A stretch of DNA of 45,395 nt from an uncultured bacterium. Its GTDB lineage: Bacteria; Patescibacteriota; Minisyncoccia; Phycocordibacterales; PALSA-1337. Position numbers and translations under genes: made by a program. A model generated the notes under the pieces. That model was not told where the DNA came from, did no database searches, and saw nothing but the letters and a program-made list of their open reading frames with translations. The DNA is taken from positions 1 to 45,395 of the forward strand of contig CAIQCJ010000032.1 of the NCBI GenBank assembly GCA_903870315.1. Reading direction: 5' to 3'. This document shows, in pieces, positions 5,488 through 45,395 of this stretch (the first letter of the stretch is position 1; every line of letters begins with the position of its first letter).

Positions 5488-5910
5488 ATGGCAAAGAAAA
5501 TCATAAAAACAGTCAAAGTTCTAGCTCCGGCAGGAAAAGCAACTCCAGCTCCACCACTCGGACCAACCTTGGGTCAGGCCGGCGTTAATATCGGTGATTT
5601 CACCAAGAAATTCAACGATGCTACCAAGAATATGATTGGTGATATCATACCAGTCGTTATCACAGTCTACGATGACCGTACTTACAGTTTCGTCTTGAAG
5701 ACTCCTCCAGCGTCTAGTCTCATTTTGAAGGCCTTAAAGAAAGAGAAGGGTTCTGGCAAGCCAAACTTGAGCAAGATTGGTATCCTTACTAAGACACAAC
5801 TCAAGGAGATTGCTGAGAAGAAACTCCCGGATCTCAATGCTAACGACGTTGATGCTGCCATGAAGATTGTCGCTGGTACGGCTCGTTCTATGGGTGTTGA
5901 GGTTAAGTAA
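5488..5910 (+). CDS. rplK: 50S ribosomal protein L11
   Basis: [37 protein letters not shown] is the canonical L11 N-terminal domain. 140 aa. Confidence 0.95.
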
Positions 5911-5941
5911 AGTTATATTATCTATATTTGTAAAGAAAATC

Positions 5942-5962
5942 CCGGCCTAGAGCCGGTTTTTT
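5942..5962 (+). terminator. Intrinsic terminator after rplK
   Basis: CCGGC-CTAGA-GCCGG followed by TTTTTT, 32 nt after the rplK stop. Confidence 0.8.
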
Positions 5963-6043
5963 CTTTCAGAACACCCATTTTTTTTAGGTTGTATGGTTGT
6001 CTTTGTTGTGGTAAGTTTCAATATAGAAAGGTAGGTGATTTGA

Positions 6044-6544
6044 TTGGACACAATAAATGTGTTTTTGACATACCCTCATACAAACAGTCAGTCGAAGTTC
6101 TCTGTTTCCATGAAAGCTCTGCATGAACGTATCAGTGGATTGTCTGGCGTTGTTCTATTGGATAGTTGGAGACAAATATCGGGTCAACTTGGTGTAAGTC
6201 TTTCAGAGGCTTATAGTCGCGATATGGCAAATGTAAACAAAGCCGACCTTGTAGTGGCCATCTATGAAAATAGTGTAGGCAGTATTGATGATGTCGTCAT
6301 GGAGATTGTAAGGCGTTGTGAGGTCAGGAAACCAATCCGGATCTTTGTATCACATAAAGGCGCGGTTTCTCCAATCATCGAAGCTTGCATCGCTTATAAT
6401 AAAGTGCAAAAAGTCGGTCCGTTTGATGTACGAGCAGATGAGATACCTAATCCTACAAGGTATTTTCATGTAAATGGAATCTTCGAATTGGTAGCCGAAT
6501 GGGTCAACAAGAAGAATCTTATTTCAGGAGAAAATCCTGGCTGA
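6044..6544 (+). CDS. Hypothetical protein; weak resemblance to nucleoside 2-deoxyribosyltransferase-like / TIR-like Rossmannoid fold
   Basis: 166-aa ORF with TTG start 8 nt after AGGTAGG. INVFLTYPH at the N-terminus and NKADLVVAIYENSVGSIDDVVMEI...RKPIRIF resemble the aDlvvA...G...E...kP pattern of NDT-like proteins. The assignment is tentative. Confidence 0.45.
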   Translation: MDTINVFLTYPHTNSQSKFSVSMKALHERISGLSGVVLLDSWRQISGQLGVSLSEAYSRDMANVNKADLVVAIYENSVGSIDDVVMEIVRRCEVRKPIRIFVSHKGAVSPIIEACIAYNKVQKVGPFDVRADEIPNPTRYFHVNGIFELVAEWVNKKNLISGENPG

Positions 6545-6569
6545 GCCAAGATTGTCTGTCAGCTATTGC

Positions 6570-6603
6570 ATCGCCGTAGTCCAAACTCTTGGACTACGGC
6601 GAT
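6570..6603. terminator. Perfect 15-bp hairpin between convergent genes
   Basis: ATCGCCGTAGTCCAA-ACTC-TTGGACTACGGCGAT, abutting the stop of the minus-strand DHFR-like gene. There is no strong T-run on either side, so terminator function is inferred from position only. Confidence 0.45.
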
Positions 6604-6604
6604 T

Positions 6605-7108
6605 CTACTTTACATTATATTCTAGTAAAAGGGCACCACTCGTAGTCTTCTCAGAACTTACAAGTGTGAGTTTGTTGTCTAGGCCTTTATTGAATAGCTT
6701 CATACCAGCCCCAAATATCAAAGGCTCTATAGTGAGGTATAACTTATCTACAACACCACTTTCCATGAACATAGTGTAAATCTGTGATCCACCACAAATG
6801 GCGACTTCTTTGTAACCTCTATCAGCCAAGTCAGCCAACAGATCAGCTGGTGCCTTAGTGGTTGTTTCTACTCCAGCGATAGCGTCTGCACCGGTAAGCT
6901 TTTCTGGTGAATAGACGACGTTTAAGCGGTCTTTGAGCGGCTTACCAAGTGTTCTATAGGTATTTAAGCCCATAACCACAACACCTGCTCTCTTGGTGAT
7001 CTCTATAAAGCGCTTTTTGTCTTCCTTACTAGTCCAGGAAGCAGCATGTGCTGAATCTTTTCCTATAAAACCATCTGTGGTGAGTGCTGCAGAGATGAAA
7101 CAAATCAT
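6605..7108 (-). CDS. Dihydrofolate reductase family protein (DHFR / RibD C-terminal-like)
   Basis: ISAALTTDGFIG, W.SKEDKKRF, GVVVMGLNTYRTLGKPLKDRLNVVYS and ICGGSQIYTMF follow the DHFR-fold pattern. Neighbours thyA and glyA. Confidence 0.7.
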   Translation of the reverse strand: MICFISAALTTDGFIGKDSAHAASWTSKEDKKRFIEITKRAGVVVMGLNTYRTLGKPLKDRLNVVYSPEKLTGADAIAGVETTTKAPADLLADLADRGYKEVAICGGSQIYTMFMESGVVDKLYLTIEPLIFGAGMKLFNKGLDNKLTLVSSEKTTSGALLLEYNVK

Positions 7109-7208
7109 GATATTTTCAGTATATCATTTTGATACGAAAAATGTCATCTGTCATGGTTGCGAATACCAGTGGTTGGATTATACTTGAGTATACATTAACC
7201 AAAATTTT

Positions 7209-7889
7209 ATGAATTCATTTGAAATAGAAATAAAAAGTTTATTGGGTGCCGAGGATGCAGCTATTGCATTCAAAAAGAGATTGCAGTCTGCACGACCAAA
7301 TATGAAATTGGTAGGAACGGGGAAGCAGCTGAATCATTATTTCAACCTAGCAAAAGATCTGAAAGCTCTGGAGGCTTCACTTGTCGGCGTAGTTCCTGCT
7401 GATAAAAAAGATTCCTTGAAAAATATTCTTGAACACGGAAACAAAATTTCTTTGAGAACTCGTGATGCAGACGGAAAAGTTATCTTGGTCATGAAGGCCT
7501 CTGTCGGAGGTGACACTAGTGCAAACGGTGTCCAGAGAATAGAGTTCGAGGCTGTCATGAAGGGGAAGACTTTGGACGAACTAGATAAGGCTCTACTTAG
7601 CGCCGGATGTACATATCAAGCCAAATGGTCGCGCGCCAGAGAAGAGTATGCAGACGGCGATATTCATATCTGTATGGACAAAAACGCTGGTTACGGATAT
7701 TTGGTTGAATTTGAGAAGGTTGTCACAAATGAGGCCGATACCAAAAAGGCTCATGCAGAACTTATATCTTTCATGAAGGAACTTGGTGTAGAAGAGTTGC
7801 CTCAAGAGCGCATAGAGAGGATGTTTGCTTTTTACAATGCACACTGGCCAGAATATTATGGTACAGAGAAAACATTTACTATTAAATAA
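7209..7889 (+). CDS. CYTH-domain protein (CyaB/thiamine triphosphatase superfamily)
   Basis: N-terminal FEIEIKSLL carries the ExExK signature of CYTH domains. Size and beta-rich pattern are consistent. Confidence 0.65.
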   Translation: MNSFEIEIKSLLGAEDAAIAFKKRLQSARPNMKLVGTGKQLNHYFNLAKDLKALEASLVGVVPADKKDSLKNILEHGNKISLRTRDADGKVILVMKASVGGDTSANGVQRIEFEAVMKGKTLDELDKALLSAGCTYQAKWSRAREEYADGDIHICMDKNAGYGYLVEFEKVVTNEADTKKAHAELISFMKELGVEELPQERIERMFAFYNAHWPEYYGTEKTFTIK

Positions 7890-9639: not shown

Positions 9640-10848
9640 ATGAAAGACACACAAATAAAGAGACTCCTTGAGGCAGAGAAGAAACGTCAGAAAAAAGTCA
9701 TAAACCTTATTGCTTCTGAAAATTTTGTGTCTGCCGATGTTCTAGAAGCTCTCGGTTCAGAACTAACAAATAAATATGCGGAAGGATATTCTGGCAAAAG
9801 ATATTACGGTGGTAACGAGATAGTCGATAAGGTCGAAGATCTTTGTATCGAACGTGCATTGAAACTTTTTGGTCTTGATGCAAATAAGTGGCACGTCAAC
9901 GTACAGGCGCTTTCTGGTTCACCTGCGAACTTGGCTGTGTATGTCGGTGTATTGGGTTTGAAAAATGATGGCCAGCCACCAAAGATCATGGGTATGTCAC
10001 TCGATCATGGAGGCCATCTTACTCATGGTCACAAAGTTTCTGCTACTGGAAAATTTTTCACACAGGTTCCTTATGGTCTAGATCCTAAGACTGAGATGTT
10101 GAACTATGTTCAGCTTCGTGAGATAGCCATGAAAGAGAGGCCTGCTATTATCGTGGCAGGCTACACAGCATATCCACGTCGTATAGATTGGGCCAAGATG
10201 CGTGAGATTGCTGACGCTTGCGGAGCATTACTTATGGTTGATATGTCACATGTGGCCGGTCTTGTCGCTGGTGGGGCATATCCAGCACCATTTCCATACG
10301 CCGATATTGTGACCACGACTACTCATAAGACTTTGCGTGGTCCTAGGTCAGCACTTATATTTGTTCGCAAAGACGCCCGTGAACTTGATAAGAAAATAGA
10401 CAAGGCTGTTTTCCCTGGTTTGCAGGGTGGTCCTCATGAAAACCAGATTGCAGCAGTTGCTGTTGCTCTCAAGGAAGCCGCAAGTCCAGCTTTCAAGAAA
10501 TACGCACAACAGGTTGTAAAAAATGCCGCTGCTTTAGCCAATGAACTTCGTAATTGTGGCTGGAGACTTATTTCTGGTGGCACAGATTCTCATCTTATTC
10601 TCATAGATACTTGGAATAGCGGTGTGAAAAACGCCAAAGGTGCCGGCGCAGTTCCTGGAAAAGACGCCAGTGACAAACTTGAGAAAGTCGGCATCATTGT
10701 AAACAAAAATGGCATTCCATTTGATTCAAGATCACCAGTTGATCCGTCTGGTATTCGCATTGGTTCTGCCGCAGAGACTACTCATGGCAAAAAAGAGAAA
10801 GATTTTCGTGCAATAGCGAAAAAGATAGATGAGGTATTGAGGAAGTAG
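9640..10848 (+). CDS. glyA: Serine hydroxymethyltransferase
   Basis: LIASENFVS, LTNKYAEGYSGKRYYGG and TTTTHKTLRGPR (PLP-lysine motif) are diagnostic. Confidence 0.95.
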   Translation: MKDTQIKRLLEAEKKRQKKVINLIASENFVSADVLEALGSELTNKYAEGYSGKRYYGGNEIVDKVEDLCIERALKLFGLDANKWHVNVQALSGSPANLAVYVGVLGLKNDGQPPKIMGMSLDHGGHLTHGHKVSATGKFFTQVPYGLDPKTEMLNYVQLREIAMKERPAIIVAGYTAYPRRIDWAKMREIADACGALLMVDMSHVAGLVAGGAYPAPFPYADIVTTTTHKTLRGPRSALIFVRKDARELDKKIDKAVFPGLQGGPHENQIAAVAVALKEAASPAFKKYAQQVVKNAAALANELRNCGWRLISGGTDSHLILIDTWNSGVKNAKGAGAVPGKDASDKLEKVGIIVNKNGIPFDSRSPVDPSGIRIGSAAETTHGKKEKDFRAIAKKIDEVLRK

Positions 10849-10908
10849 GGATATTTGATTTTAGCCAATTTGGCGGATTTTTCGCTAACTTTCTGCTACA
10901 ATCATCCC

Positions 10909-12735
10909 ATGAAAGACGAAATCATAAAGATATTGCAAAAAACCTTTGAGCCACTTGGTATATCGGATATTTCGGTCGCCTTAGATTTTCCAGAAAATGC
11001 CGAATATGGTGACTATACTAGCAATGTGGCCATGATAAACGCCAAGAGGCTTGGTATGAAGCCTGTTGAATTGGCGACAAAGATCGTGGCAGATTTCGAC
11101 AAACTTGTAGCCAAGGCATCTTTGAAAGGTCTTATGAAATCAGTCAGTGTGGCTGGACCTGGATTTATTAATTTTACTTTGACCGCAGAAGCGGTTTCGA
11201 AGAATGTTCAGGAGATCTCAAGAGAGTTGAATGGCCCCAAAGGCTCAAATAGCTTAAAAGGCCAAATTTCAAATATCGGCGCTGGTAAAAAAGTTTTGAT
11301 AGAGTACTCGTCTCCGAATATTGCCAAACCTTTTACGGTCGGACATTTGAGGTCAACTATCATAGGTGATTCTATTGCGCGTATTTTGAGTGCTACTGGA
11401 TATTCTGTTATTCGTGACAACCATCTTGGTGACTGGGGAACACAGTTTGGGAAGCTTTTGGTGGCGATAGAAAAGTGGGGGGATGAATTTGGCGGACTCG
11501 ATGGCATCAAAAAGAGTGAAAATCCTATCAAAATACTTGTTGATCTTTACGTGAAGTTCCATGATGAGGTTGCGATTATGGAGGATTCTGAAGACGAAAA
11601 ATTGAAAACAGAAGCAGAAGAACTCGTTACTTTTGCTCGTGCCAAATCTAAAATATTGGAATCTGGTAAGGATCCGATAATTTCTGAAATTTGGAAGGTC
11701 TGCGTAGATCTTTCCATGCATGAGTTTGCCCTTATTTATACGAGACTCGGTGTGTCTTTTGATCCAAAGAGGGGAGATACGCAGATTGGTGAAAGTTTCT
11801 TTGTGACCCCAGATAAGATCAACCCAGTCAGAGATGCCTTGAATGCCAAAAATCTTTTGAAAGAAAGTGAGGGTGCCAAAGTTGTATTCTTTGGTAGTGA
11901 AGATCCAAAGTCATGGAAACTCCCTCCGCTTATAGTAGAGAAAAGTGACGGTACATCCATATATGCTACTCGTGATTTGGCCGCAGATTTATATCGAATC
12001 AATACATACGGTAAAGGTCTAATACTCATAAATGAGGTTGGTGCTGAACAAAATCTTTACTTCAAACAACTTATAGAAACTGAGACTATGCTTGGCTGGT
12101 TTACGAAAGGTCAGAGACTTCATATCGCCCACGGACTTTACAGGTTCAAGGATGGCAAGATGTCTACAAGAAAAGGTAAGGTCATCTGGCTAGGTGATAT
12201 TCTGGATGAAGCAGTTACTCGTGCTTCCAAGATAAATGCCGATAGTGCCAATGATGTGGCTGTGGCGGCTATCAAGTTCAATGATCTTAAGCGCGACAGT
12301 ATACAAGATATAGTTTTCGATTGGGATGAAATGATGAGTATGACCGGTGACTCTGGACCATATCTACAATATTCATGCGTGCGTGCCAAAGCCGTCATAG
12401 AGAAAGCGAAAGGGCTCGGCATAGTCGCGCATATTGGCCCTGGATCCGGTGAAGGTAGTACACGCCCAAAAATCGCCCAAATCGATCTTCTTGAAAGATA
12501 CCTGATCCGTTTTCAGTCGGTTGTCGAATTCGCCGGCGCATCATATAGACCGAATGTCATTGCCAACTATCTCATAAATCTGGCGGCGCTTTTCAACAGC
12601 TTCTATTCCCAAGTAATGATCGCTGATGCGAAAGACCCTATGGCAGCTTACAAAGTTGCTGTCACGCAGGCTTTTGCCATGACCATGGAGAGGGGATTAG
12701 ATCTATTGGGTATAAAAGTTCCGAAGAAGATGTAA
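10909..12735 (+). CDS. argS: Arginyl-tRNA synthetase
   Basis: EYSSPNIAKPFTVGHLRSTIIGD (HIGH-region variant), DGTSIYATRDLA, MSTRKG (KMSKS-like) and a DALR anticodon-binding C-terminus. The track ORF starts at TTG 10855; I prefer ATG 10909 (MKDEIIKILQ). Confidence 0.9.
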   Translation: MKDEIIKILQKTFEPLGISDISVALDFPENAEYGDYTSNVAMINAKRLGMKPVELATKIVADFDKLVAKASLKGLMKSVSVAGPGFINFTLTAEAVSKNVQEISRELNGPKGSNSLKGQISNIGAGKKVLIEYSSPNIAKPFTVGHLRSTIIGDSIARILSATGYSVIRDNHLGDWGTQFGKLLVAIEKWGDEFGGLDGIKKSENPIKILVDLYVKFHDEVAIMEDSEDEKLKTEAEELVTFARAKSKILESGKDPIISEIWKVCVDLSMHEFALIYTRLGVSFDPKRGDTQIGESFFVTPDKINPVRDALNAKNLLKESEGAKVVFFGSEDPKSWKLPPLIVEKSDGTSIYATRDLAADLYRINTYGKGLILINEVGAEQNLYFKQLIETETMLGWFTKGQRLHIAHGLYRFKDGKMSTRKGKVIWLGDILDEAVTRASKINADSANDVAVAAIKFNDLKRDSIQDIVFDWDEMMSMTGDSGPYLQYSCVRAKAVIEKAKGLGIVAHIGPGSGEGSTRPKIAQIDLLERYLIRFQSVVEFAGASYRPNVIANYLINLAALFNSFYSQVMIADAKDPMAAYKVAVTQAFAMTMERGLDLLGIKVPKKM

Positions 12736-12755
12736 TAAATTCTCCGGCGTGGTTT

Positions 12756-13022
12756 TCAGTACATATCGTCGTGTGATCCGATACCGTATAGGGTTATTGT
12801 TGTCGCGTCAAAAGAAAAAACTATTCTGTGGTCATAAGATATTCTACATGCATATAATTCTTTGAGAGACCCATGTAGTTTATGAGTTTTAAGTAATGGA
12901 TTGGAGACATCGCTCTCTAACATTTTAAGAGTTTTCGACCATCTTGTTTTTAAGTGCGCGTTCTTCCTAAGAAAATCACGCGACATTTTGTTGAATGCGG
13001 GAGTGGCGAATATTGTCCTCAT
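12756..13022 (-). CDS. RelE/StbE-family type II toxin
   Basis: 88 aa. LKTHKLHGSLKELYACRISYDHRIVFSFDATTITLYGIGSHDDMY matches the RelE/StbE/YafQ C-terminal pattern. Preceded by a small partner ORF. Confidence 0.7.
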   Translation of the reverse strand: MRTIFATPAFNKMSRDFLRKNAHLKTRWSKTLKMLESDVSNPLLKTHKLHGSLKELYACRISYDHRIVFSFDATTITLYGIGSHDDMY

Positions 13023-13037
13023 GGATCAAGAGATAGG

Positions 13038-13220
13038 CTAAAGACCTTTAGTAATGTCGGCAATAAGCAAATTTGCTGACGAGTATTTTCTGACTTTACC
13101 AGTTTGTGCTTCCCAAACAGATTGAAGGATCTCAAGTTCAAAGAATCTTTTTCGCAGATCGCGCATGATACTAGCAACCTCTTTTGAGTTCTTTTTTATC
13201 TGAAATTTAGTGATTTTCAT
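13038..13220 (-). CDS. Putative antitoxin partner of the RelE-like toxin
   Basis: 60-70 aa ORF ending 15 nt upstream of the toxin start on the same strand. No motif recognised; the call is positional. The start could be 13250 or 13220. Confidence 0.45.
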   Translation of the reverse strand: MKITKFQIKKNSKEVASIMRDLRKRFFELEILQSVWEAQTGKVRKYSSANLLIADITKGL

Positions 13221-13256
13221 GTATTTAGTATAGCGTAGGTGGGTGGTCATGCCTAC

Positions 13257-13286
13257 TTGACATTTAGATACTAAGTAGTGTACAAT
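13257..13286 (+). promoter_or_regulatory. Sigma70-like promoter upstream of the DGR-target-like gene
   Basis: TTGACA (13257-13262), 18-nt spacer, TACAAT (13281-13286). This would give a ~105-nt 5' UTR before the ATG at 13398. Confidence 0.45.
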
Positions 13287-13397
13287 ATCGCTCAGCGAGG
13301 TAGGTCTTTGTCAGTGCAATGTTAGGGGATTCGTCCCAGTGCGTGGTCGTAGTAAAACAAACCAAAACCGCTCGAAAGAGCAGAAAGGAAAGCGCGT

Positions 13398-14186
13398 ATG
13401 AAAAATGCGAGCGTTCCCAAAGTAGCAGAAGTGGTTCAGAGAGAGATCTCTGTGCAATGGCAAGCACAGATTAGTGCCAACCTTATCGTGGGGTCAATAC
13501 CGATCCTAAAACAACTGGGAAGATTCCCGCAATTGGCTCAGAAGCTTGCAGCCAAGCCGGAAGCTTGGACAGAGTTCCTGATGTCGGCATTGCCGAAGCG
13601 GATGGTTATCGGCCACAATGATGCGGAATATTGGGACCGGTATTATCAAAATGAGTTTGGCATCAAGGGCTCATTTGAGGGTCTCGAAATCCCAGCCGCT
13701 CCAGCTTATCCAGCATGGCTTGTTGTGATGCATGAACAGATCTCCAATCGGTGCAATCCGATAATGGAGGTTTGCAAAAAGCATTACCCGAAGTACTGGC
13801 AGTACACGAGCGATCTCGGCGCTTCGATCGTCAGACATGATCGGAGTGGGACATACGGAATCTGGGTCGCGGCTTCGCCGAGCGCTGAATTCGGAAATGT
13901 GGATGGTAAAAACTTGTCTAGCCAGGATGTTTGGGACAGGGGCATTATTACCACAACTCTGCCGGAGCGTCTGATTCTTGGTGATACGTTCTATTTGAAA
14001 AACCAAGATCATCTGGACAAAAATAAAATCAACCTCTGTCCAGGTTCGCGCAATTCCGACGGCAATGTGCCGAGTGTGAATCGGCACAACGACGACAATG
14101 TCAAGGTGAACTACTGGAATCCGCAGAATGCCGATGACAATCTGCGGTTCCGTCTGGAAATTTCTCGCAACAAGGGGCTTTCATAG
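13398..14186 (+). CDS. Putative DGR target (variable) protein with C-terminal CLec-like variable module
   Basis: 262-aa ORF, visibly more G+C-rich than its neighbours. The C-terminus CPGSRNSDGNVPSVNRHNDDNVKVNYWNPQNADDNLRFRL resembles the ...NRNNNPNNRNNNLGFR ends of DGR variable proteins. It lies next to Avd-like and DGR-RT-like ORFs. Confidence 0.5.
   Translation: MKNASVPKVAEVVQREISVQWQAQISANLIVGSIPILKQLGRFPQLAQKLAAKPEAWTEFLMSALPKRMVIGHNDAEYWDRYYQNEFGIKGSFEGLEIPAAPAYPAWLVVMHEQISNRCNPIMEVCKKHYPKYWQYTSDLGASIVRHDRSGTYGIWVAASPSAEFGNVDGKNLSSQDVWDRGIITTTLPERLILGDTFYLKNQDHLDKNKINLCPGSRNSDGNVPSVNRHNDDNVKVNYWNPQNADDNLRFRLEISRNKGLS
14052..14153 (+). other. Candidate DGR variable region (VR)
   Basis: Among these 34 codons, 9 are Asn (AAT/AAC) and 5 are Asp (GAC/GAT), plus CAC, TAC, TCC and GCC. 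That mix is what adenine-specific mutagenesis of AAY template codons would produce. No matching template repeat was found in this window. Confidence 0.35.
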
Positions 14187-14194
14187 CCCCTTTT
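14174..14194. terminator. Hairpin plus T-run at the 3' end of the target gene
   Basis: GGGGC-TTTCATA-GCCCC then TTTTGTG. The stop codon TAG (14184-14186) lies in the loop/stem. The position (immediately 3' of the VR-like module) mirrors the hairpin found downstream of DGR VRs. It also faces the convergent Avd-like ORF. Confidence 0.65.
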
Positions 14195-14197
14195 GTG

Positions 14198-14452
14198 TCA
14201 TATGTTTTGGCTACGCGCCACATAGTTTATCCAATTGGTCGCTTCTTTGGATATTTCAAAAAGTTTGGTAGAAAGACGTATATAAGTTTTATCATCGATG
14301 ATAAGTAATTCATTTTCTGTCCGAATCAGATTTTGTAGAACACCGATTTTTACACGCAATCTTTCCAGTGTCGGCTTCTTTAGGATTTTTATTTGAAATG
14401 ACCCTTCTATAGCCAGAGACAAAATGTTTATGCACAGCCGTTCTATTTCCAT
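14198..14452 (-). CDS. Avd-like four-helix-bundle protein (short, possibly 5'-truncated)
   Basis: 84 aa, all-helical. LERLRVKIGVLQNLIRTENELLIIDDKTYIRLSTKLFEISKEATNWINYV matches the C-terminal half of the DGR accessory variability determinant / 23S-IVS four-helix-bundle family. Typical members are longer. Confidence 0.55.
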   Translation of the reverse strand: MEIERLCINILSLAIEGSFQIKILKKPTLERLRVKIGVLQNLIRTENELLIIDDKTYIRLSTKLFEISKEATNWINYVARSQNI

Positions 14453-14527
14453 ATGTATTCCCAGCTTGTTGCTTTTCGATAGTTTTTGGCCGGTGTTGTA
14501 AATGTCTTTGTGTAGTATTCTTATACT

Positions 14528-15019
14528 ATGGATAATTGGGACAATTTGTTTGAACTTATAAAAAGGATTATTTTTTCATTCGAAAAGACCGGTGGAAAAG
14601 GCTTGCCACTTGGCAATGTTACTAGTCAGCTTTTCTCCGATATTTATCTCAATGAGCTGGATCAGTTTGTAAAACACGAACTAAAAGCAAAGTACTATAT
14701 TAGATATTGTGACGATTTTGTAATTTTAAATGACTCTTTGGATTACCTTGATTATTGTTTAGATAAGATTAGGGATTTTTGTTCGGAAAATCTGTTGGTA
14801 AATTTACATCCAGATAAAGTAGAGATACGTAAACTGAAAACCGGAGTAGATTTTCTTGGATATGTTTCCTTGCCACATTATAGAGTCTTGCGTACCAAAA
14901 CAAAGAGGAGGATGTTAAATAGAGTTTCGACAAAAAATGTGGCCTCATATTTAGGAATGTTGAAGCATTGCAAAGGAGAGAAAATAGAGGAACAAATTAG
15001 CAGATTATTTTTTGATTAA
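14528..15019 (+). pseudogene. N-terminally truncated DGR-type reverse transcriptase (motifs 4-7 and thumb only)
   Basis: GLPLGNVTSQLFSDIYLNELD carries the [I/L]GxxxSQ motif-4 hallmark of DGR RTs. YIRYCDDFVIL is the YxDD catalytic motif. Only 163 aa; an in-frame TAG at 14513 blocks upstream extension, and no RT motifs 1-3 appear in any upstream frame. Confidence 0.7.
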
Positions 15020-15040
15020 AAAATGCTAGAATAAGCCATT

Positions 15041-18000
15041 ATGAGTTCACATAGTGAGCGCGAAGAAAAGATGCTGGCCTTCTGGAAAGAGAAGGGTATT
15101 TTTGAGAAAACACTGGAGAAACCTTCTCCTAAAGGCGAATTTACTTTCTATGATGGCCCGCCATTTGCTACGGGCACACCTCATTACGGGCACTTGCTGG
15201 CTGGTACCATGAAGGATGTCATTCCGCGCTGGAAAACCATGCAGGGATATCACGTGGCTCGCCGATGGGGCTGGGATTGTCATGGTTTGCCAGTTGAGAA
15301 TCTCATAGAAAAGGAGCTCGGACTTAAGTCCAAGAAAGATATTTTTGAATATGGCATTGATAAGTTCAATGACGCTGCTCGTGCCAGTGTCATGCGTTAT
15401 GCTGACGAATGGCGCAAAGTTGTTCCACGTTTGGGGCGTTTCGTCGATATGGAGGATGATTATCGTACGATGGATGCCTCGTATACCGAAAGTGTCTGGT
15501 GGATATTCAAGAATCTCTATGACAAAGGTCTGATCTATGAAGGTTTCAAATCCATGAATCTTTGTCCACGTTGTGAGACGACTTTGTCGAACTTTGAAGT
15601 GGCACAGGGTTACAAGGACATAACAGATATTTCTGTATATGTGAAGTTTAGGATACCTGACTGGTACAAAGTTTTCTGGTCAAATGGTGGAAATGACCCG
15701 AAAAGCCAAAATAGAAATGTACAAGGTGTAAATGGAGCGCAGATAGCCACTTATCTTATAGCTTGGACGACGACGCCGTGGACTTTACCAGGGAATGTGG
15801 CTTTGGCGGTAAATCCAGATATTGATTATGTCAGGGTTAATTTAAGCACAATAACCAAAGATGATTCGGATACTATTGGCTCAGTAAGCGAAACATACTT
15901 GATAGCGGAATCACGTCTTGCGGTCATCTTGAAAGATAAACAATATGAGATTATCGAGAAGATAAAAGGTTCAGATCTTGTCGGTCTTTCATATGAACCT
16001 ATTTTCGATTGTTATCACAACGACAAAACCTTGAAGGATCGTGGAAATGGTTGGAAGATATATGGTGCAGATTTCGTGACAATAGAAGATGGTACTGGTA
16101 TCGTCCACATCGCTCCAGCATTTGGGGCAGATGACTACAGTTTGCTCCTCAAATACAATTTGCCTTTAGTACAACACGTGGCTGTCGACGGTACATTCAA
16201 GAAAGAGTTTACATCTAGCCCAGAGACTTCAGTCTTTTCTGGTCTACATGTGAAGCCTAAGGATACATCTGAAGACAAAAATGCTCACCAAAGTACTGAT
16301 ATTGAAGTTATAAAATGGTTGGCTCATAGTGGAAAACTTTTTGATAAAGAAAAGATTATACACTCATACCCACATTGTTGGCGCTGTGAGACTCCTCTTA
16401 TTAACTACGCCTCTTCTTCTTGGTTTGTGAAAGTCACCGATATCAAGGATAAACTGGTGGCAGCCAATAAGAAGATAACTTGGGTTCCAGAAGAACTTGG
16501 CGAAGGTCGTTTTGGTAATTGGTTAGAAGGTGCGCGTGACTGGGCTATATCTCGCTCACGTTTCTGGGGAGCACCGATACCTGTATGGAGAGAAGAAGGT
16601 GCAAGTGGTACGCAAGGTCCAAGCAATTTACATGTCATAGGATCTATAGCAGACTTCAAGAAATATTCTCATACAAAGAATACTTATTACGTGATACGTC
16701 ATGGAGAATCCGAAGGTAATGTGAAAGGCATATTGAGCACAGATATGAAGATAGTTCACCATCTGACAGACAAGGGTAGGGAGCAAGCAGCATCTGCCAC
16801 GGAAAACCTTAAAGGTATAGAGTTTGATCATGTATTTGTATCTCCGTTTGCACGTACTCAGGAGACTTACGAAGTTTTGGCTTCGAAGTTAGGTTGGGAC
16901 AAGAGTAAAATGATAACAGACGATCGTATAAGAGAGCTTGGAGGTGGTATATGGAATGGACGACTTATATCTGATTTCTTGGCTGAGTTTGAACATTCTG
17001 ACAGGTTCGAGAATGCTCCAGAAGGTGGAGAGAATTATACCGATATAAAAAAGAGGATGGGCGATTTCTTGTATGACATAGAAAACAGATACCAAGGTGA
17101 GACTATACTTATAGTTACTCACGAGACGCCGGCTTGGTTATTGTTCTCTGCGGCTATTGGAGCCGATAAAGCCTCATCTTTGGCCATGCGTGTCAGCGAC
17201 AGGAAGACTGGTGGTGATTTCTTGAAAAATGCCGAAGTGAAGAAGTTGGATTTTGTGCCTATTCCTCACAATAAAAACTATGAACTCGATCTACATCGTC
17301 CTTTCATAGATGAAATAGGATTGCGCGTTGATAATGGCAATAAACTCACTCGTGTGTCTGATGTTTTCGATTGTTGGTTTGAATCAGGCTCTATGCCATG
17401 GAGCTCAAATCACTATCCTTTCGATGGGGATATTGCTTATCCAGCTGACTTCATTGCTGAAGGTCAAGATCAGACCCGTGGCTGGTTCTACACCATGTTG
17501 GTCCTAGGTGTAGGCTTGTTTGGTACATCTCCATACAAGAAAGTCTTGGCCAATGGTCTTGTCCTAGCAGAAGATGGTGAAAAGATGTCCAAATCCAAGA
17601 AGAATTATCCTGATCCGATGCTTATAATAGATAAATACAGTGCAGATGCATTGCGCTATTATTTACTTTCTTCACCAGTAGTACGTGCACAAGACCTGTG
17701 TTTTAGTGAGAAAGGTGTAGATGAAGTGACGAAGAAGATTATCAATCGTATTCTAAATGTAGTCTCTTTCTATGAGATGTATGCAGGCGAAGGTGTAAAT
17801 GGGAGTACGCAAGATGAAAGTAAAATTACGAGCGAATCATGTGTCCGAAGCAAGAATGTTCTGGATCTCTGGATTAAGGCACGTCTAAATGAGACAATTT
17901 CTCAAATCACCGGTAGCTTAGAATCAGGAGAACTTGATCGCGCCTCGAGACCATTTATGGATCTTATAGATGATCTATCAACTTGGTATCTGCGTCGATC

Positions 18001-18781
18001 CCGCGACCGCTTCAAAGGAGATGATGTCTCAGACAAGAGCTCAGCCTTGGCAACTACAAAGTTTGTCCTCATAGAGACAGCTAAACTCATGGCCCCATTT
18101 ATGCCTTTTTTGGCAGAGGATATATATATCAGAGTTGGTAGAAACATCACCAGCAATAATTCAAATGCAGATATACTAGAAAGTGTTCATCTAGATTCTT
18201 GGCCAAAAGCCACGAAAGTTAATCAGCATCTTATAGATGATATGAAGTTGGTACGTTCAGTCGCTTCACAAGGACTGGAGGCTCGTATGACGGCTAAGAT
18301 CAATGTCCGTCAGCCACTTCAGTCTCTGAAGGTTGAACTGATCCAAGAGAAGATGTGGTATAGATCAGAAAGACAACTTGGTCCAGAATTTACGTCTATC
18401 ATTGCGGATGAAGTCAATGTCAAAGAGGTTCTATCTTCCATAAAACTGGTAAGGACGACCAGTGCAGGATCTAACAAAGCGAATACCATAGTCAGTAGTG
18501 TTGAGCTCGATACTTCTATCACCATAACATTGAGAGAAGAAGGTATGGTTCGTGAACTCATACGTGCCATACAGGATCTAAGAAAGACCAAAGGCCTTAC
18601 TATAAATGACAAAGCTACTATTATCATTGAGACCGACAAGACTGGTCACGGATTTATCGAAAAGAATAAAGATGTGATATCTCGTGCGACGCTGTTGAAG
18701 ATGATTGAGTGGGGAAGTGTTGATAGTTCAATAGATATCCTGAAAATAGGTGAGATGTATATTAAGATTGATTTGAGATAA
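15041..18781 (+). CDS. ileS: Isoleucyl-tRNA synthetase, type 2 (eukaryote-like), with an internal histidine-phosphatase domain
   Basis: FYDGPPFATGTPHYGHLLAG (HIGH), WTTTPWTLPGN (editing domain), WAISRSRFWGAPIPVW, DLHRPFIDEI, DCWFESGSMP and KMSKSKKNYPDP (KMSKS). 1246 aa, about 200 aa longer than usual because of the insert at 16685-17260. Confidence 0.95.
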   Translation: MSSHSEREEKMLAFWKEKGIFEKTLEKPSPKGEFTFYDGPPFATGTPHYGHLLAGTMKDVIPRWKTMQGYHVARRWGWDCHGLPVENLIEKELGLKSKKDIFEYGIDKFNDAARASVMRYADEWRKVVPRLGRFVDMEDDYRTMDASYTESVWWIFKNLYDKGLIYEGFKSMNLCPRCETTLSNFEVAQGYKDITDISVYVKFRIPDWYKVFWSNGGNDPKSQNRNVQGVNGAQIATYLIAWTTTPWTLPGNVALAVNPDIDYVRVNLSTITKDDSDTIGSVSETYLIAESRLAVILKDKQYEIIEKIKGSDLVGLSYEPIFDCYHNDKTLKDRGNGWKIYGADFVTIEDGTGIVHIAPAFGADDYSLLLKYNLPLVQHVAVDGTFKKEFTSSPETSVFSGLHVKPKDTSEDKNAHQSTDIEVIKWLAHSGKLFDKEKIIHSYPHCWRCETPLINYASSSWFVKVTDIKDKLVAANKKITWVPEELGEGRFGNWLEGARDWAISRSRFWGAPIPVWREEGASGTQGPSNLHVIGSIADFKKYSHTKNTYYVIRHGESEGNVKGILSTDMKIVHHLTDKGREQAASATENLKGIEFDHVFVSPFARTQETYEVLASKLGWDKSKMITDDRIRELGGGIWNGRLISDFLAEFEHSDRFENAPEGGENYTDIKKRMGDFLYDIENRYQGETILIVTHETPAWLLFSAAIGADKASSLAMRVSDRKTGGDFLKNAEVKKLDFVPIPHNKNYELDLHRPFIDEIGLRVDNGNKLTRVSDVFDCWFESGSMPWSSNHYPFDGDIAYPADFIAEGQDQTRGWFYTMLVLGVGLFGTSPYKKVLANGLVLAEDGEKMSKSKKNYPDPMLIIDKYSADALRYYLLSSPVVRAQDLCFSEKGVDEVTKKIINRILNVVSFYEMYAGEGVNGSTQDESKITSESCVRSKNVLDLWIKARLNETISQITGSLESGELDRASRPFMDLIDDLSTWYLRRSRDRFKGDDVSDKSSALATTKFVLIETAKLMAPFMPFLAEDIYIRVGRNITSNNSNADILESVHLDSWPKATKVNQHLIDDMKLVRSVASQGLEARMTAKINVRQPLQSLKVELIQEKMWYRSERQLGPEFTSIIADEVNVKEVLSSIKLVRTTSAGSNKANTIVSSVELDTSITITLREEGMVRELIRAIQDLRKTKGLTINDKATIIIETDKTGHGFIEKNKDVISRATLLKMIEWGSVDSSIDILKIGEMYIKIDLR
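16685..17260 (+). other. Histidine phosphatase (phosphoglycerate-mutase-like) domain inserted in IleRS
   Basis: YYVIRHGESEGN matches the PGAM-family phosphohistidine signature (h-x-R-H-G-E-x-x-x-N). It is followed by FVSPFARTQET (second Arg), RELGGGIWNG (acid Glu) and LIVTHETPAW (second His). It lies between IleRS motifs PIPVW (W516) and DLHRP (D750). Confidence 0.75.
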
Positions 18782-27775: not shown

Positions 27776-27854
27776 TTCTTCATAGCTTCTTGAGAACTTC
27801 TTGAACGTTTCTTGAAGATTTTTTGATAGAGATTTTAACTTAGCGGTTTATGAT
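27776..27854 (+). repeat. Copy 1 of a 79-nt intergenic module: four 11-bp-phased heptamers plus promoter-like elements
   Basis: TTCTTCA (27776), TTCTTGA (27787), TTCTTGA (27798) and TTCTTGA (27809), spaced exactly 11 nt apart. Then TTGATA (27823) and TATGAT (27849). Hand alignment gives 64/79 identity with 37630-37708 and a 37-nt perfect core (27777-27813 = 37631-37667). Confidence 0.8.
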
Positions 27855-28023
27855 AGTAATGCCTCTGGACATTGCGGAGGAGATAGTTTTGTGTTAATCT
27901 CATGGCATTATAAGTAATCGCAGTAAGTTCCTGATTTGTTGTATTATGGCTTAATAAGGCCACAGTATGATGGTGAAGGATTCCGCAGATTTATTTTAAG
28001 CGGAGCACTGACTGCAAAAAACA

Positions 28024-28554
28024 ATGAACGAAACACAAAACGACGTTCGTATGAACGTGTATGAGATCGGGTATTTGATCGTTTCTTCTGTGCCAGAAGA
28101 GAAAGTAGCTTCTGAAGCTGAGGCGGTCAAGAGTATTATCACAAAGGCGGGGGCTTCGGTTATTGCCGAAGAGGTGCCTCATAAGGAACATCTCGCGTAT
28201 ACTATGCGCAAGAAGACAGTTTCTGGATCATATGATAAATATGACACAGCTTATTTCGGATGGATCAAGTTCGAAGTCGGTTCGGACGTTGTTGAATCTG
28301 TGAAGAAGCTTGTTGAGACACAACCTTCAGTCTTGAGGATGCTCATGATCTCTACTGTCAAAGAAAATACTTATCTAGGTAAGCATGCTTCAGCTATAGC
28401 AGCAGAGTTCAATCCTATGGGCAAAAAGACCATAGAGAGAACTTTTTCTCCTGCTCTGAAGTCATCAGAAGCTGAGAAAGCATCTGTCCCTGTAACTCCA
28501 GCCTCTGTCGAGGATATGGACAAGAGTATCGACGCAATGATCAAAGAGGTATAA
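28024..28554 (+). CDS. rpsF: 30S ribosomal protein S6 with C-terminal extension
   Basis: MNVYEIGYLIVSSVPEEK start and a ~95-aa S6 core. Position ahead of ssb-rpsR. About 70 extra C-terminal residues. Confidence 0.8.
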   Translation: MNETQNDVRMNVYEIGYLIVSSVPEEKVASEAEAVKSIITKAGASVIAEEVPHKEHLAYTMRKKTVSGSYDKYDTAYFGWIKFEVGSDVVESVKKLVETQPSVLRMLMISTVKENTYLGKHASAIAAEFNPMGKKTIERTFSPALKSSEAEKASVPVTPASVEDMDKSIDAMIKEV

Positions 28555-37629: not shown

Positions 37630-37708
37630 ATCTTCATAGCTTCTTGAGAACTTCTTGAACGTTTCTTCATAACTTTTTGAGCGAAATTTTATCTCGCTGT
37701 TTTATGCT
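37630..37708 (+). repeat. Copy 2 of the 79-nt phased-heptamer module
   Basis: ATCTTCA (37630), TTCTTGA (37641), TTCTTGA (37652) and TTCTTCA (37663) at 11-nt spacing. Then TTGAGC (37677) and TATGCT (37703). Ends 30 nt before the ATG at 37739. Confidence 0.8.
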
Positions 37709-37738
37709 GGTTGTATTATCCATAATCAACCAGTTTGT

Positions 37739-43952: not shown

Positions 43953-45395
<1,443 letters not shown>

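Follow-up and report, generated by a model that had tools for sequence, protein, structure and literature searches.

The systems closest to the locus analysed here are the diversity-generating retroelements (DGRs) of the Patescibacteria, or candidate phyla radiation (CPR), and the DGR of the Bordetella phage BPP-1. A groundwater survey that Wu et al. cite as their reference 23 is said to be that of Paul et al. from 2017. It is largely from this survey that the "CPR set" of DGRs in Wu et al. 2018 was drawn, by what that article says of its sources (PMC5758913). The cycle is established, with a template repeat (TR) being copied, adenines being mutagenized and a variable repeat (VR) being replaced (PMC5758913). 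The published DGR surveys bring together putatively functional elements. Here we describe a locus in a 45,395-nucleotide (nt) stretch of DNA from an uncultured bacterium of the PALSA-1337 lineage of Patescibacteriota (contig CAIQCJ010000032.1 of assembly GCA_903870315.1, the whole stretch being hereafter called the window), where a target gene, a single repeat, avd (accessory variability determinant) and a partial reverse transcriptase (RT) gene lie side by side between argS and ileS. Comparison with relatives makes it very probable that this locus is an inactivated DGR of the compact Patescibacteria (CPR) type, which has undergone two independent deletions, one between VR and TR and the other across the 5' ends of avd and the RT gene. 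A sequence-only reading of the same DNA had also recognized a decayed DGR core with divergent avd and RT, and in this it is confirmed by the DGR-family RT, by Avd and by the relatives that bear TR/VR pairs.

A homology search with the RT remnant (E <= 1e-3) gives 2,519 proteins, almost all of them from Patescibacteria/CPR metagenome bins, and 80 loci of this family were taken from species-representative GTDB genomes for comparison. A direct repeat pair of ~115 nt, with mismatches falling nearly all at the adenines of one copy, can be recognized in 56 of the 80 loci, and most of those in which no pair was detected are cut by contig ends; as an example, 17/17 TR/VR mismatches in locus L001 are at TR adenines. 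The order of the elements is the same in 55 of the 56 repeat-pair loci: a target with a 3' VR, a gap of ~250-370 nt, the TR, a hairpin, avd on the minus strand, and the RT gene. The sequence-only reading had placed the TR between avd and RT, but in these 55 loci, as in the syntenic relative L085 described below, it comes after the target stop and before the avd 3' end, with an antisense overlap joining the 5' ends of the avd and RT genes. Motifs 1-3 are present upstream in the full-length RTs of the family, and a conserved N-terminal segment (...GGGRH..F.DV....NL..AW..F..GKR...) is found upstream of the ~277-amino acid (aa) gene calls, the real RT being ~330 aa in length. The anatomy of an abundant CPR DGR type is thus corrected with respect to the position of the TR upstream of an inverted avd, the antisense 5' overlap, and the size of the RT. 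The closest solved structure to a full-length relative is 8ub7_A (328 aa, IGSLTSQ, YMDD), with E 9e-39; the best group II RT reaches 1.6e-21. We take 8ub7 to be the Bordetella enzyme on the strength of its length and motifs, the entry being named only "Reverse transcriptase"; a literature search for "8UB7" gave no match. By all these features, the locus family is a bona fide DGR family.

The decisive comparison is with L085, a 37.7-kb JGI contig found through its 72%-identical target homologue, in which the order argS-target/VR-TR-avd-RT-ileS(-recO) reproduces the neighbourhood of the window, so that an intact version of the same locus is available in a relative at the argS...ileS position. 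The L085 element consists of a VR (5506-5623) and a TR (5886-6003) with 8/8 mismatches at TR adenines, avd on the minus strand (6076-6414) and an RT gene of 333 aa (6379-7380). Three blastn blocks connect it to the window: 13380-14162 aligns with L085 4844-5623 (target through VR), 14043-14536 with 5884-6387 (TR through avd), and 14597-14998 with 6955-7356 (RT C-terminus). It can be seen that positions 14043-14162 of the window match both L085 repeats, and that one repeat unit and the spacer are gone, the spacing of the repeats in L085 being 380 nt. A tblastn search with the L085 proteins places Avd residues 8-113 at 14542-14225 and RT residues 176-329 at 14546-15007, which sets the RT/avd deletion junction at 14543..14545: Avd homology stops at 14542 and RT homology resumes at 14546. 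The L085 interval missing at this junction, 6394-6903, comprises RT codons 6-175 and avd codons 1-7; the deletion is in frame, because its 510 nt are 170 codons, which is the difference in length between the L085 RT (333 aa) and that of the window (163 aa). The avd/RT junction has no repeat on its flanks in the window, and the nearest intact relative, at only ~75% identity in DNA, is too distant for microhomology to be assessed. Altogether, the locus is orthologous and syntenic (argS...ileS-recO) to an intact DGR, with identities of 72, 80 and 73% for target, Avd and RT, respectively, and with identifiable lesions; the alignments establish its anatomy and both deletion intervals.

The DGR target gene (13398..14186, plus strand) encodes 262 aa and has its C-terminal variable region replaced by a TR; its identity is 72% with the target in the intact DGR of L085 and ~30% with VR-bearing targets at many loci of the family. 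The single surviving repeat (14045..14162, plus strand), apparently the product of a VR x TR collapse, aligns by blastn to both repeats of L085 and has the TR state at 7/8 sites that separate the L085 TR from the VR. Its adenine fraction is 0.278, to be compared with 0.268 +/- 0.024 for the TRs of the family and 0.118 +/- 0.030 (maximum 0.198) for the VRs, and is similar in both halves of the repeat. Downstream is a TR-specific 3' flank (14163..14197, plus strand), composed of a TCTCGCAAC motif and of a hairpin with a T-rich tail, whose arms occupy 14172-14179 and 14185-14192. The target stop TAG (14184-14186) is within the hairpin, and the tail of the target, ...RFRLEISRNKGLS, is read from the TR 3' flank. 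A stretch of 43 nt of this flank (...CTGGAAATTTCTCGCAACAAGGGGCTTTCATAGCCCCTTTTGTGTCA) is near-identical to the flank of the L085 TR and unrelated to that of the L085 VR. Throughout the family, the 3' side of the TR reads GAA(G/A)T(T/C)TC(TCGCA), followed by a strong hairpin with a T-rich tail and then by the avd stop, and the 3' side of the VR reads GCAGTT(T/C)CC..TAA with CCTT-rich sequence. Since hairpin and flank are of the TR type, and diagnostic sites and composition agree with them, the surviving repeat is identified as a TR. The earlier statement that there is no template repeat at this locus is therefore overturned: a TR-type repeat with its TR flank lies at 14045-14197, on the far side of avd. 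It is the only copy, as neither a repeat search nor word-7 blastn revealed a second one in the 45-kb window, and hence there is no separate TR/VR pair differing at TR adenines.

The hairpin after the TR is a feature of the family even though the stem sequences are unrelated: with each flank folded singly against shuffles, the median free energy was -18.7 kcal/mol and the median z-score -3.3 for 58 flanks, and the corresponding values for the window hairpin are -23.1 kcal/mol and -4.1. RNAalifold applied to a MAFFT alignment of 32 TR flanks gave no consensus pairs, as the loop lengths differ. The fusion of the target to its TR flank can also be recognized from the protein ends, since 10 of the 11 closest target homologues end in ...RFR(L/R)A(I/T)(V/C/I) and ...LEISRN... 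occurs only in the window and in one other protein, P0127. An AlphaFold model of the target (12-sequence alignment) had a mean predicted local distance difference test score of 57, too poor for a fold search, and no fold is claimed. A sigma-70-like promoter candidate (13257-13286, plus strand; TTGACA-18-TACAAT, 11/12 matches) is located 112 nt upstream of the target start.

The avd coding sequence (14198..14542, minus strand) corresponds to residues 8-113 of the 114 in L085, with 80% identity over 14542-14225, and is 58% identical to residues 1-112 of the L001 Avd. It is without its first 7 codons and without any ATG/GTG/TTG start before residue 33; the frame is open on the minus strand from 14575, next to a TGA at 14576-14578, down to the stop at 14198, and contains only near-cognate start codons upstream of 14452. 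The first ATG, at 14452, opens an 84-aa ORF (14198-14452) that misses helix 1 and covers positions 33-106 of the 107 in the bAvd profile of Pfam. This is the short Avd-like ORF of the sequence-only reading, and it does exist, but the coding sequence has not been reduced to a C-terminal part: over the longer frame the bAvd match covers positions 6-106 (E 3.6e-7). The score against this profile is 31 bits for the window and 33 bits for the intact L085 Avd, both under the 40-bit cut-off of Pfam, and a search for a solved Avd structure gave no PDB sequence match to the frame at E <= 1. It also follows that positions 14453-14527, which had been described as a gap of 75 nt between two facing truncated 5' ends, are the N-terminal coding sequence of Avd and not a spacer; the real junction is at 14542/14546.

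The RT remnant (14528..15019, plus strand, 163 aa) consists of the native start with 5 codons, followed by RT residues 176-329 in L085 numbering, at 73% identity. As the sequence-only reading had it, LGNVTSQ (motif 4) and YCDD are both within this ORF, which represents only the C-terminal half of an RT: the Pfam RVT_1 match covers profile positions 111-203 of 205 (E 6e-11), with truncation before position 111. Motifs 4-7 and the thumb are retained, the ORF ending ~50 residues past motif 7, and motif 4 agrees with the (I/L/V)GxxxSQ form of the DGR clade; the best solved-structure match is again 8ub7_A (328-aa chain), at residues 174-285, with E 5e-18. Motifs 0-3, including the motif-A aspartate, have been deleted in frame, and a complete RT core (motifs 1-7, three catalytic aspartates) is lacking, since L085 residues 6-175, and with them D150 of motif A, are absent window-wide. 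The claim that motifs 1-3 are encoded nowhere upstream was also correct, as tblastn with a full-length relative detected no RT N-terminal homology in the 45-kb window. The first five codons, MDNWD, are the antisense of Avd VPIIH, and the L085 RT starts with MNDRN at the ATG homologous to 14528. There is indeed a TAG in frame at 14513-14515, 15 nt before the ATG of the remnant; rather than a blocking mutation beside a fortuitous start, TAG and ATG are the native 5' boundary of the RT, because both are at homologous positions in L085 (TAG 6364, ATG 6379). At the other end, the adjacency to ileS stands with a small amendment of the gap, as the stop is 21 nt, and not 22 nt, before the ileS ATG at 15041. 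No terminator-like site was found in between, and the RT remnant may plausibly share a transcript with ileS.

The fate of the target can be followed across datasets. The exact 262-aa fused target occurs in 78, and the exact 163-aa RT remnant in 73, index blocks of a public assembly collection. Seven contigs (L100, L102-L107), whose sources are JGI metagenome 3300009502, NCBI metagenome-assembled genome (MAG) GCA_903828525.1 and Logan assemblies ERR4193247 and SRR3657439, are 100% identical to the window over 10898-17519 (over 12028-17519 for L100, L102 and L103). A second strain (L084, L101, L003; ENA GROS21-1 samples) is ~0.1% diverged and shares both junctions, the avd/RT junction being reproduced in L003, L084 and L100-L107. 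This replication evidence consists of assembled contigs from several pipelines. The locus is clonally invariant across datasets: the surviving repeat shows 0 differences among five of them (the window and four others), and only 2 with respect to the second strain, one synonymous and one C/T. By comparison, otherwise identical 6.5-kb contigs from the population of the active relatives L052/L089 differ at 16-22 sites, all in the VR, with the exceptions of one outside mismatch in one contig and of the length of a (GA)n tract, and the L097/L098 population has 30 VR differences and none elsewhere in 7.5 kb. Thus, a target homologue is present at the locus, but its variable region is a TR, invariant in five datasets in place of a diversified 3' end, in agreement with the earlier view that the adjacent target is frozen.

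A nonsense mutation, S63* (13585 C>A), interrupts the target in the second strain. Within 10001-17304 the window and L084 differ at 9 positions, 6 of which belong to the 789-nt target gene (13585, 13703, 14020, 14022, 14085, 14150); together, these observations suggest that the frozen target is itself losing constraint. The clustering of four of these differences (14020, 14022, 14085, 14150) was considered as a possible trace of residual DGR activity; this was judged unlikely, because two of them fall outside the repeat, 23-25 nt before its start, another is synonymous, the gene is interrupted by S63* in that strain, and there is no variation in the other datasets.

A coherent course of events can be proposed, in which the part played by recombination, the sequence of the two events and the resulting inactivity are our inference. 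The ancestral layout would have been that of L085, with a target and its C-terminal VR, a spacer of ~260 nt, the TR, the hairpin, avd on the minus strand, and the RT gene. In intact relatives the TR RNA and its 3' hairpin are presumably copied by RT-Avd with mis-incorporation at adenines, and the cDNA would then replace the VR. In the simplest mechanism, recombination or slippage between the direct repeats VR and TR, with a crossover near their 5' end, eliminated one unit and the spacer (380 nt in L085), leaving a TR with virtually no mutations, joined in frame to the target gene and followed by the hairpin and avd. The 510-nt in-frame deletion removed RT motifs 0-3 with the catalytic aspartate, as well as the start and the first 7 codons of avd, and with the RT 5' segment any avd promoter located in it. 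A remnant without fingers and half of the palm should be unable to polymerise cDNA, and donor and recipient repeats have become merged; as there would be no cDNA synthesis and there are no separate repeats, the target is frozen, a fixed protein displaying the asparagine-rich "germline" sequence of the TR. A collapse of this kind is unsurprising for direct repeats that are 85-90% identical and ~400 nt apart.

Several observations weigh against the view of a dead element. Every family-invariant residue is kept in the RT remnant, both remnant ORFs are intact, and the deletion in RT preserves the reading frame as well as the native start codon. Identity to L085 is 80% for Avd and 73% for the RT remnant, higher than for ArgS (64%), IleS (65%) and RecO (55%), so there is no sign of accelerated decay, as would fit either recent deletions or continued constraint; we read the higher similarity of the cassette as reflecting recent deletion, possibly together with a later common ancestor of the two cassettes. 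A second DGR elsewhere in the genome could possibly act in trans, as our survey covers the 45-kb window. These same features are those on which a residual, non-canonical role would rest, either of a trans-acting RT using the TR and hairpin embedded in the target, or of Avd and the RT palm-thumb acting alone. Multi-DGR genomes do exist in the lineage, as L085 carries a second DGR upstream of argS, and relatives with apparently broken RT genes show fresh VR diversity. However, the sequence is invariant across the five datasets, the two repeat differences of the second strain are one synonymous and one C/T change, the target of that strain is a pseudogene (S63*), avd has no canonical start and would have lost any promoter in the deleted segment, the TR of the second L085 DGR is unrelated, and no RT or TR was found elsewhere in the 45-kb window. 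On balance we regard a residual role as improbable. The second DGR of L085 is complete and lies directly upstream of argS (VR 200-311, TR 675-786, avd 806-1198, RT 1190-2167); in the window the gene upstream of argS is that of serine hydroxymethyltransferase (SHMT), and there is no RT there.

Inactivation through two deletions must also be weighed against the simpler history originally proposed, in which a single deletion of ~1 kb would have taken the avd 5' end, the TR and the RT 5' half from a divergent avd/TR/RT cassette. The divergent orientation of avd and RT and the loss of the RT 5' half are as that history would have them, but the TR of the family is beyond the 3' end of avd and not between avd and RT, the window keeps the TR with its flank (14045-14197) and Avd residues 8-113, and the lost DNA corresponds to two separate L085 intervals of 380 nt and 510 nt. 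The alignment with L085 thus refutes a single event, which we regard as very improbable. The same low probability is assigned to the possibility that assembly errors produced one or both junctions, for instance through a repeat-induced collapse of VR onto TR, and that the true genome has an intact DGR. Stretches of ~27 nt that are identical in the VR and TR of L085 could in principle mislead short-k de Bruijn assembly. Nevertheless, the same structure is found, down to the base, in a JGI contig, an NCBI MAG, two Logan assemblies and, from other samples, three ENA contigs; the fused target recurs in the 78 index blocks; no target of >72% identity with the ...RFRLAIV end was found in a set of 5.8 billion protein clusters; and the avd/RT junction has no flanking repeat.

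The notion that the RT fragment comes from a group II intron, a retron or a defence RT can be dismissed as having next to no probability, since the best NCBIfam matches, a group II intron RT/maturase at 62 bits and Drt3a at 52 bits, which do speak for it in that no DGR RT model is among the matches, fall far under their respective cut-offs of 300 and 200 bits, while the fragment has motif 4 in the form LGNVTSQ, matches 8ub7_A better than Drt3a or group II RTs by 10 orders of magnitude, and belongs with its 2,519 homologues to a compact family whose loci have Avd and adenine-biased TR/VR pairs. The models for retron St85, Drt2, Drt3a, Drt4 and Drt5 all score far under their cut-offs on the remnant, the group II intron RT/maturase identity of the top match was rejected on its score, and no group II intron or retron RNA is recognized by Rfam in the window, so that the affinity to group II or retron RTs that, according to the sequence-only reading, would speak against a DGR is not what we find.

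Both kinds of lesion recur in relatives. In L014 (3020-3170) the repeat is a VR/TR hybrid, VR-like in its 5' part (adenine fraction 0.12) and TR-like in its 3' part (0.21), with a TR flank, and the RT and avd of this locus are intact despite the collapse. A VR x TR collapse is seen also in L058 (2980-3140) and in P0127, which ends in ...RFRLEISRNQ...; in total there are 4 independent cases among ~90 loci. Conversely, the TR and VR copies are kept in L037 (3645-4438) and L067 (1132-1755), where deletions of the RT 5' region abut avd, and in L067 the TR/VR mismatches are still all at TR adenines (22/22). The losses of the RT 5' half in L037, L067 and L013 are near the same place, at residues ~180-192. 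As each lesion is found alone in relatives, VR x TR collapse and RT deletion are independent events and either may come first. In L013 (91-4444) the RT 5' half was lost through an insertion of 3.3 kb; visual inspection of its translated ORFs points to an IS1595-like transposase, a Dam-like methyltransferase and possibly a restriction enzyme. The split RT halves of L029, L044, L050, L052 and L059, also considered as deletions like that of the window, were rejected as such, being (GA)n frameshifts.

VR x TR collapse is thereby documented as a recurrent, self-inflicted failure mode of DGRs. A literature search on DGR remnants found no account of it as a route of decay, and text searches of Wu et al. 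2018 gave no passage on recombination or on DGR remnants (PMC5758913). The remnant shows one way in which a DGR dies, and that a target protein is able to survive with a binding tip made of the unmutated template; DGR-finding pipelines that demand a TR/VR pair will miss collapsed cases.

The frameshifts just mentioned belong to a wider pattern of hypermutable tracts in the family. A (GA)5-14 tract, encoding RERERE, is located 10-70 nt before RT motif 4 in 13/80 loci, 8 in frame and 5 out of frame (L029, L033, L043, L044, L050, L052, L053, L059, L063, L069, L071, L073, L076), and further contigs (L088-L096) were added to these. L088, with (GA)10, and L050, with (GA)9, are 99.7% identical over 1.9 kb, and the single unit toggles between a 283-aa ORF and two fragments; in one population (GA)10, (GA)12 and (GA)13, all out of frame, occur in otherwise identical 6.5-kb DNA with at least 3 VR alleles. 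A different tract, a G7-G13 run (mode G9/G10), is present at the antisense overlap of avd and RT in 58 of the 79 loci with a locatable RT N-terminus, none of them a (GA)n locus, and encodes GGG in the RT and PPP in Avd. Here L085 has G9 (6400-6408) and L086 G10 (6006-6015), with only one other difference in 7.1 kb; the extra G of L086 shifts avd out of frame, and an overlapping second ATG keeps the RT in frame. In three Giovannonibacteria contigs (L097:3198-3200, and L098 and L099; GCA_001778555.1, GCA_001000585.1) an in-frame TAG replaces the Glu of LEDN at ~residue 50, and yet the 30 differences between L097 and L098 are all in the VR (2164-2248), which points to an active DGR whose RT is made by read-through or from an internal start.

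The RT genes that bear (GA)n are accordingly candidates for phase variation or decoding by slippage. More generally, differences in tract length, and fresh VR alleles beside out-of-frame or TAG-bearing RTs, suggest that hypermutable tracts, slippage or read-through control whether RT and Avd are expressed in the family. That hypermutation is phase-variable, and that the remnant of the window is the end state of a DGR family normally gated by such tracts, is a tentative proposition and somewhat doubtful as it stands. In the window the position of the poly-G tract, just right of 14542, is deleted; the L085 equivalent of the deleted interval begins 6 nt before the G9 tract, which may thus have been a deletion hotspot that nucleated the 510-nt deletion. 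The literature searched contained no paper linking DGRs to poly-G or (GA)n tracts. Should the tracts prove to be genuine switches, these bacteria with tiny genomes would activate and silence targeted hypermutation in a stochastic manner; we find these polymorphisms in relatives more interesting than the remnant, and they deserve a separate study.

A few other features were observed in the neighbourhood. IleS (15041-18781) has a histidine-phosphatase domain (His_Phos_1, E 4.5e-33) inserted at residues 550-716, between the halves of the catalytic core, and the insertion is found also in the L085 orthologue. Between argS and the target, a RelE/YafQ-like toxin ORF (12756-13022, minus strand; Pfam YafQ_toxin, E 2e-7) adjoins a 70-aa ORF (13038-13250, minus strand), possibly its antitoxin; the L085 counterpart of this region contains an unrelated 158-aa ORF. 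Farther away, an 81-nt direct repeat (27777-27857 / 37631-37711, 81% identical) made of reiterated CTTCTTGA(A/G) units has its copies ~30-170 nt upstream of the ORFs at 28024 and 37739, and may be a shared regulatory region. The window runs off its end within the 23S rRNA gene, of which the 5' 1,409 nt are present (43969-45395; Rfam LSU_rRNA_bacteria, 1149 bits).

These results can be placed beside what is known of related systems. In the deletions that homologous recombination or replication slippage causes between direct repeats, and in the pseudogene decay of reduced genomes, as in the window, exactly one repeat unit is lost with the intervening DNA; unlike in an ordinary repeat deletion, however, the repeats are here the donor and recipient of a retroelement, so that the collapse disables the system and rewrites the ligand-binding tip of the target. 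The DGR of phage BPP-1 (mtd-avd-TR-brt), the prototype as regards mechanism, likewise has an RT with (I/L)GxxTSQ and Y(M/C)DD and a four-helix Avd, and likewise a TR ~90% identical to a 3' VR with a structured element beside the repeats (PMC5758913). The family described here departs from BPP-1 in that its TR is located upstream of an avd in inverted orientation, its avd and RT genes have 5' ends that overlap antisense, and its hairpin follows the TR rather than, or as well as, the VR. The closest likeness is to the Patescibacteria/CPR DGRs, with which the window shares the RT clade, Avd, a small target with a C-terminal VR position and a housekeeping chromosomal context, and whose adenine-specific TR/VR differences reappear in its intact relatives; it differs from them in having half an RT, no VR/TR pair and an avd without a start. 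The locus is in this sense not a new kind of element but a degenerate member of the CPR DGRs, an ordinary and well-replicated pseudo-cassette.

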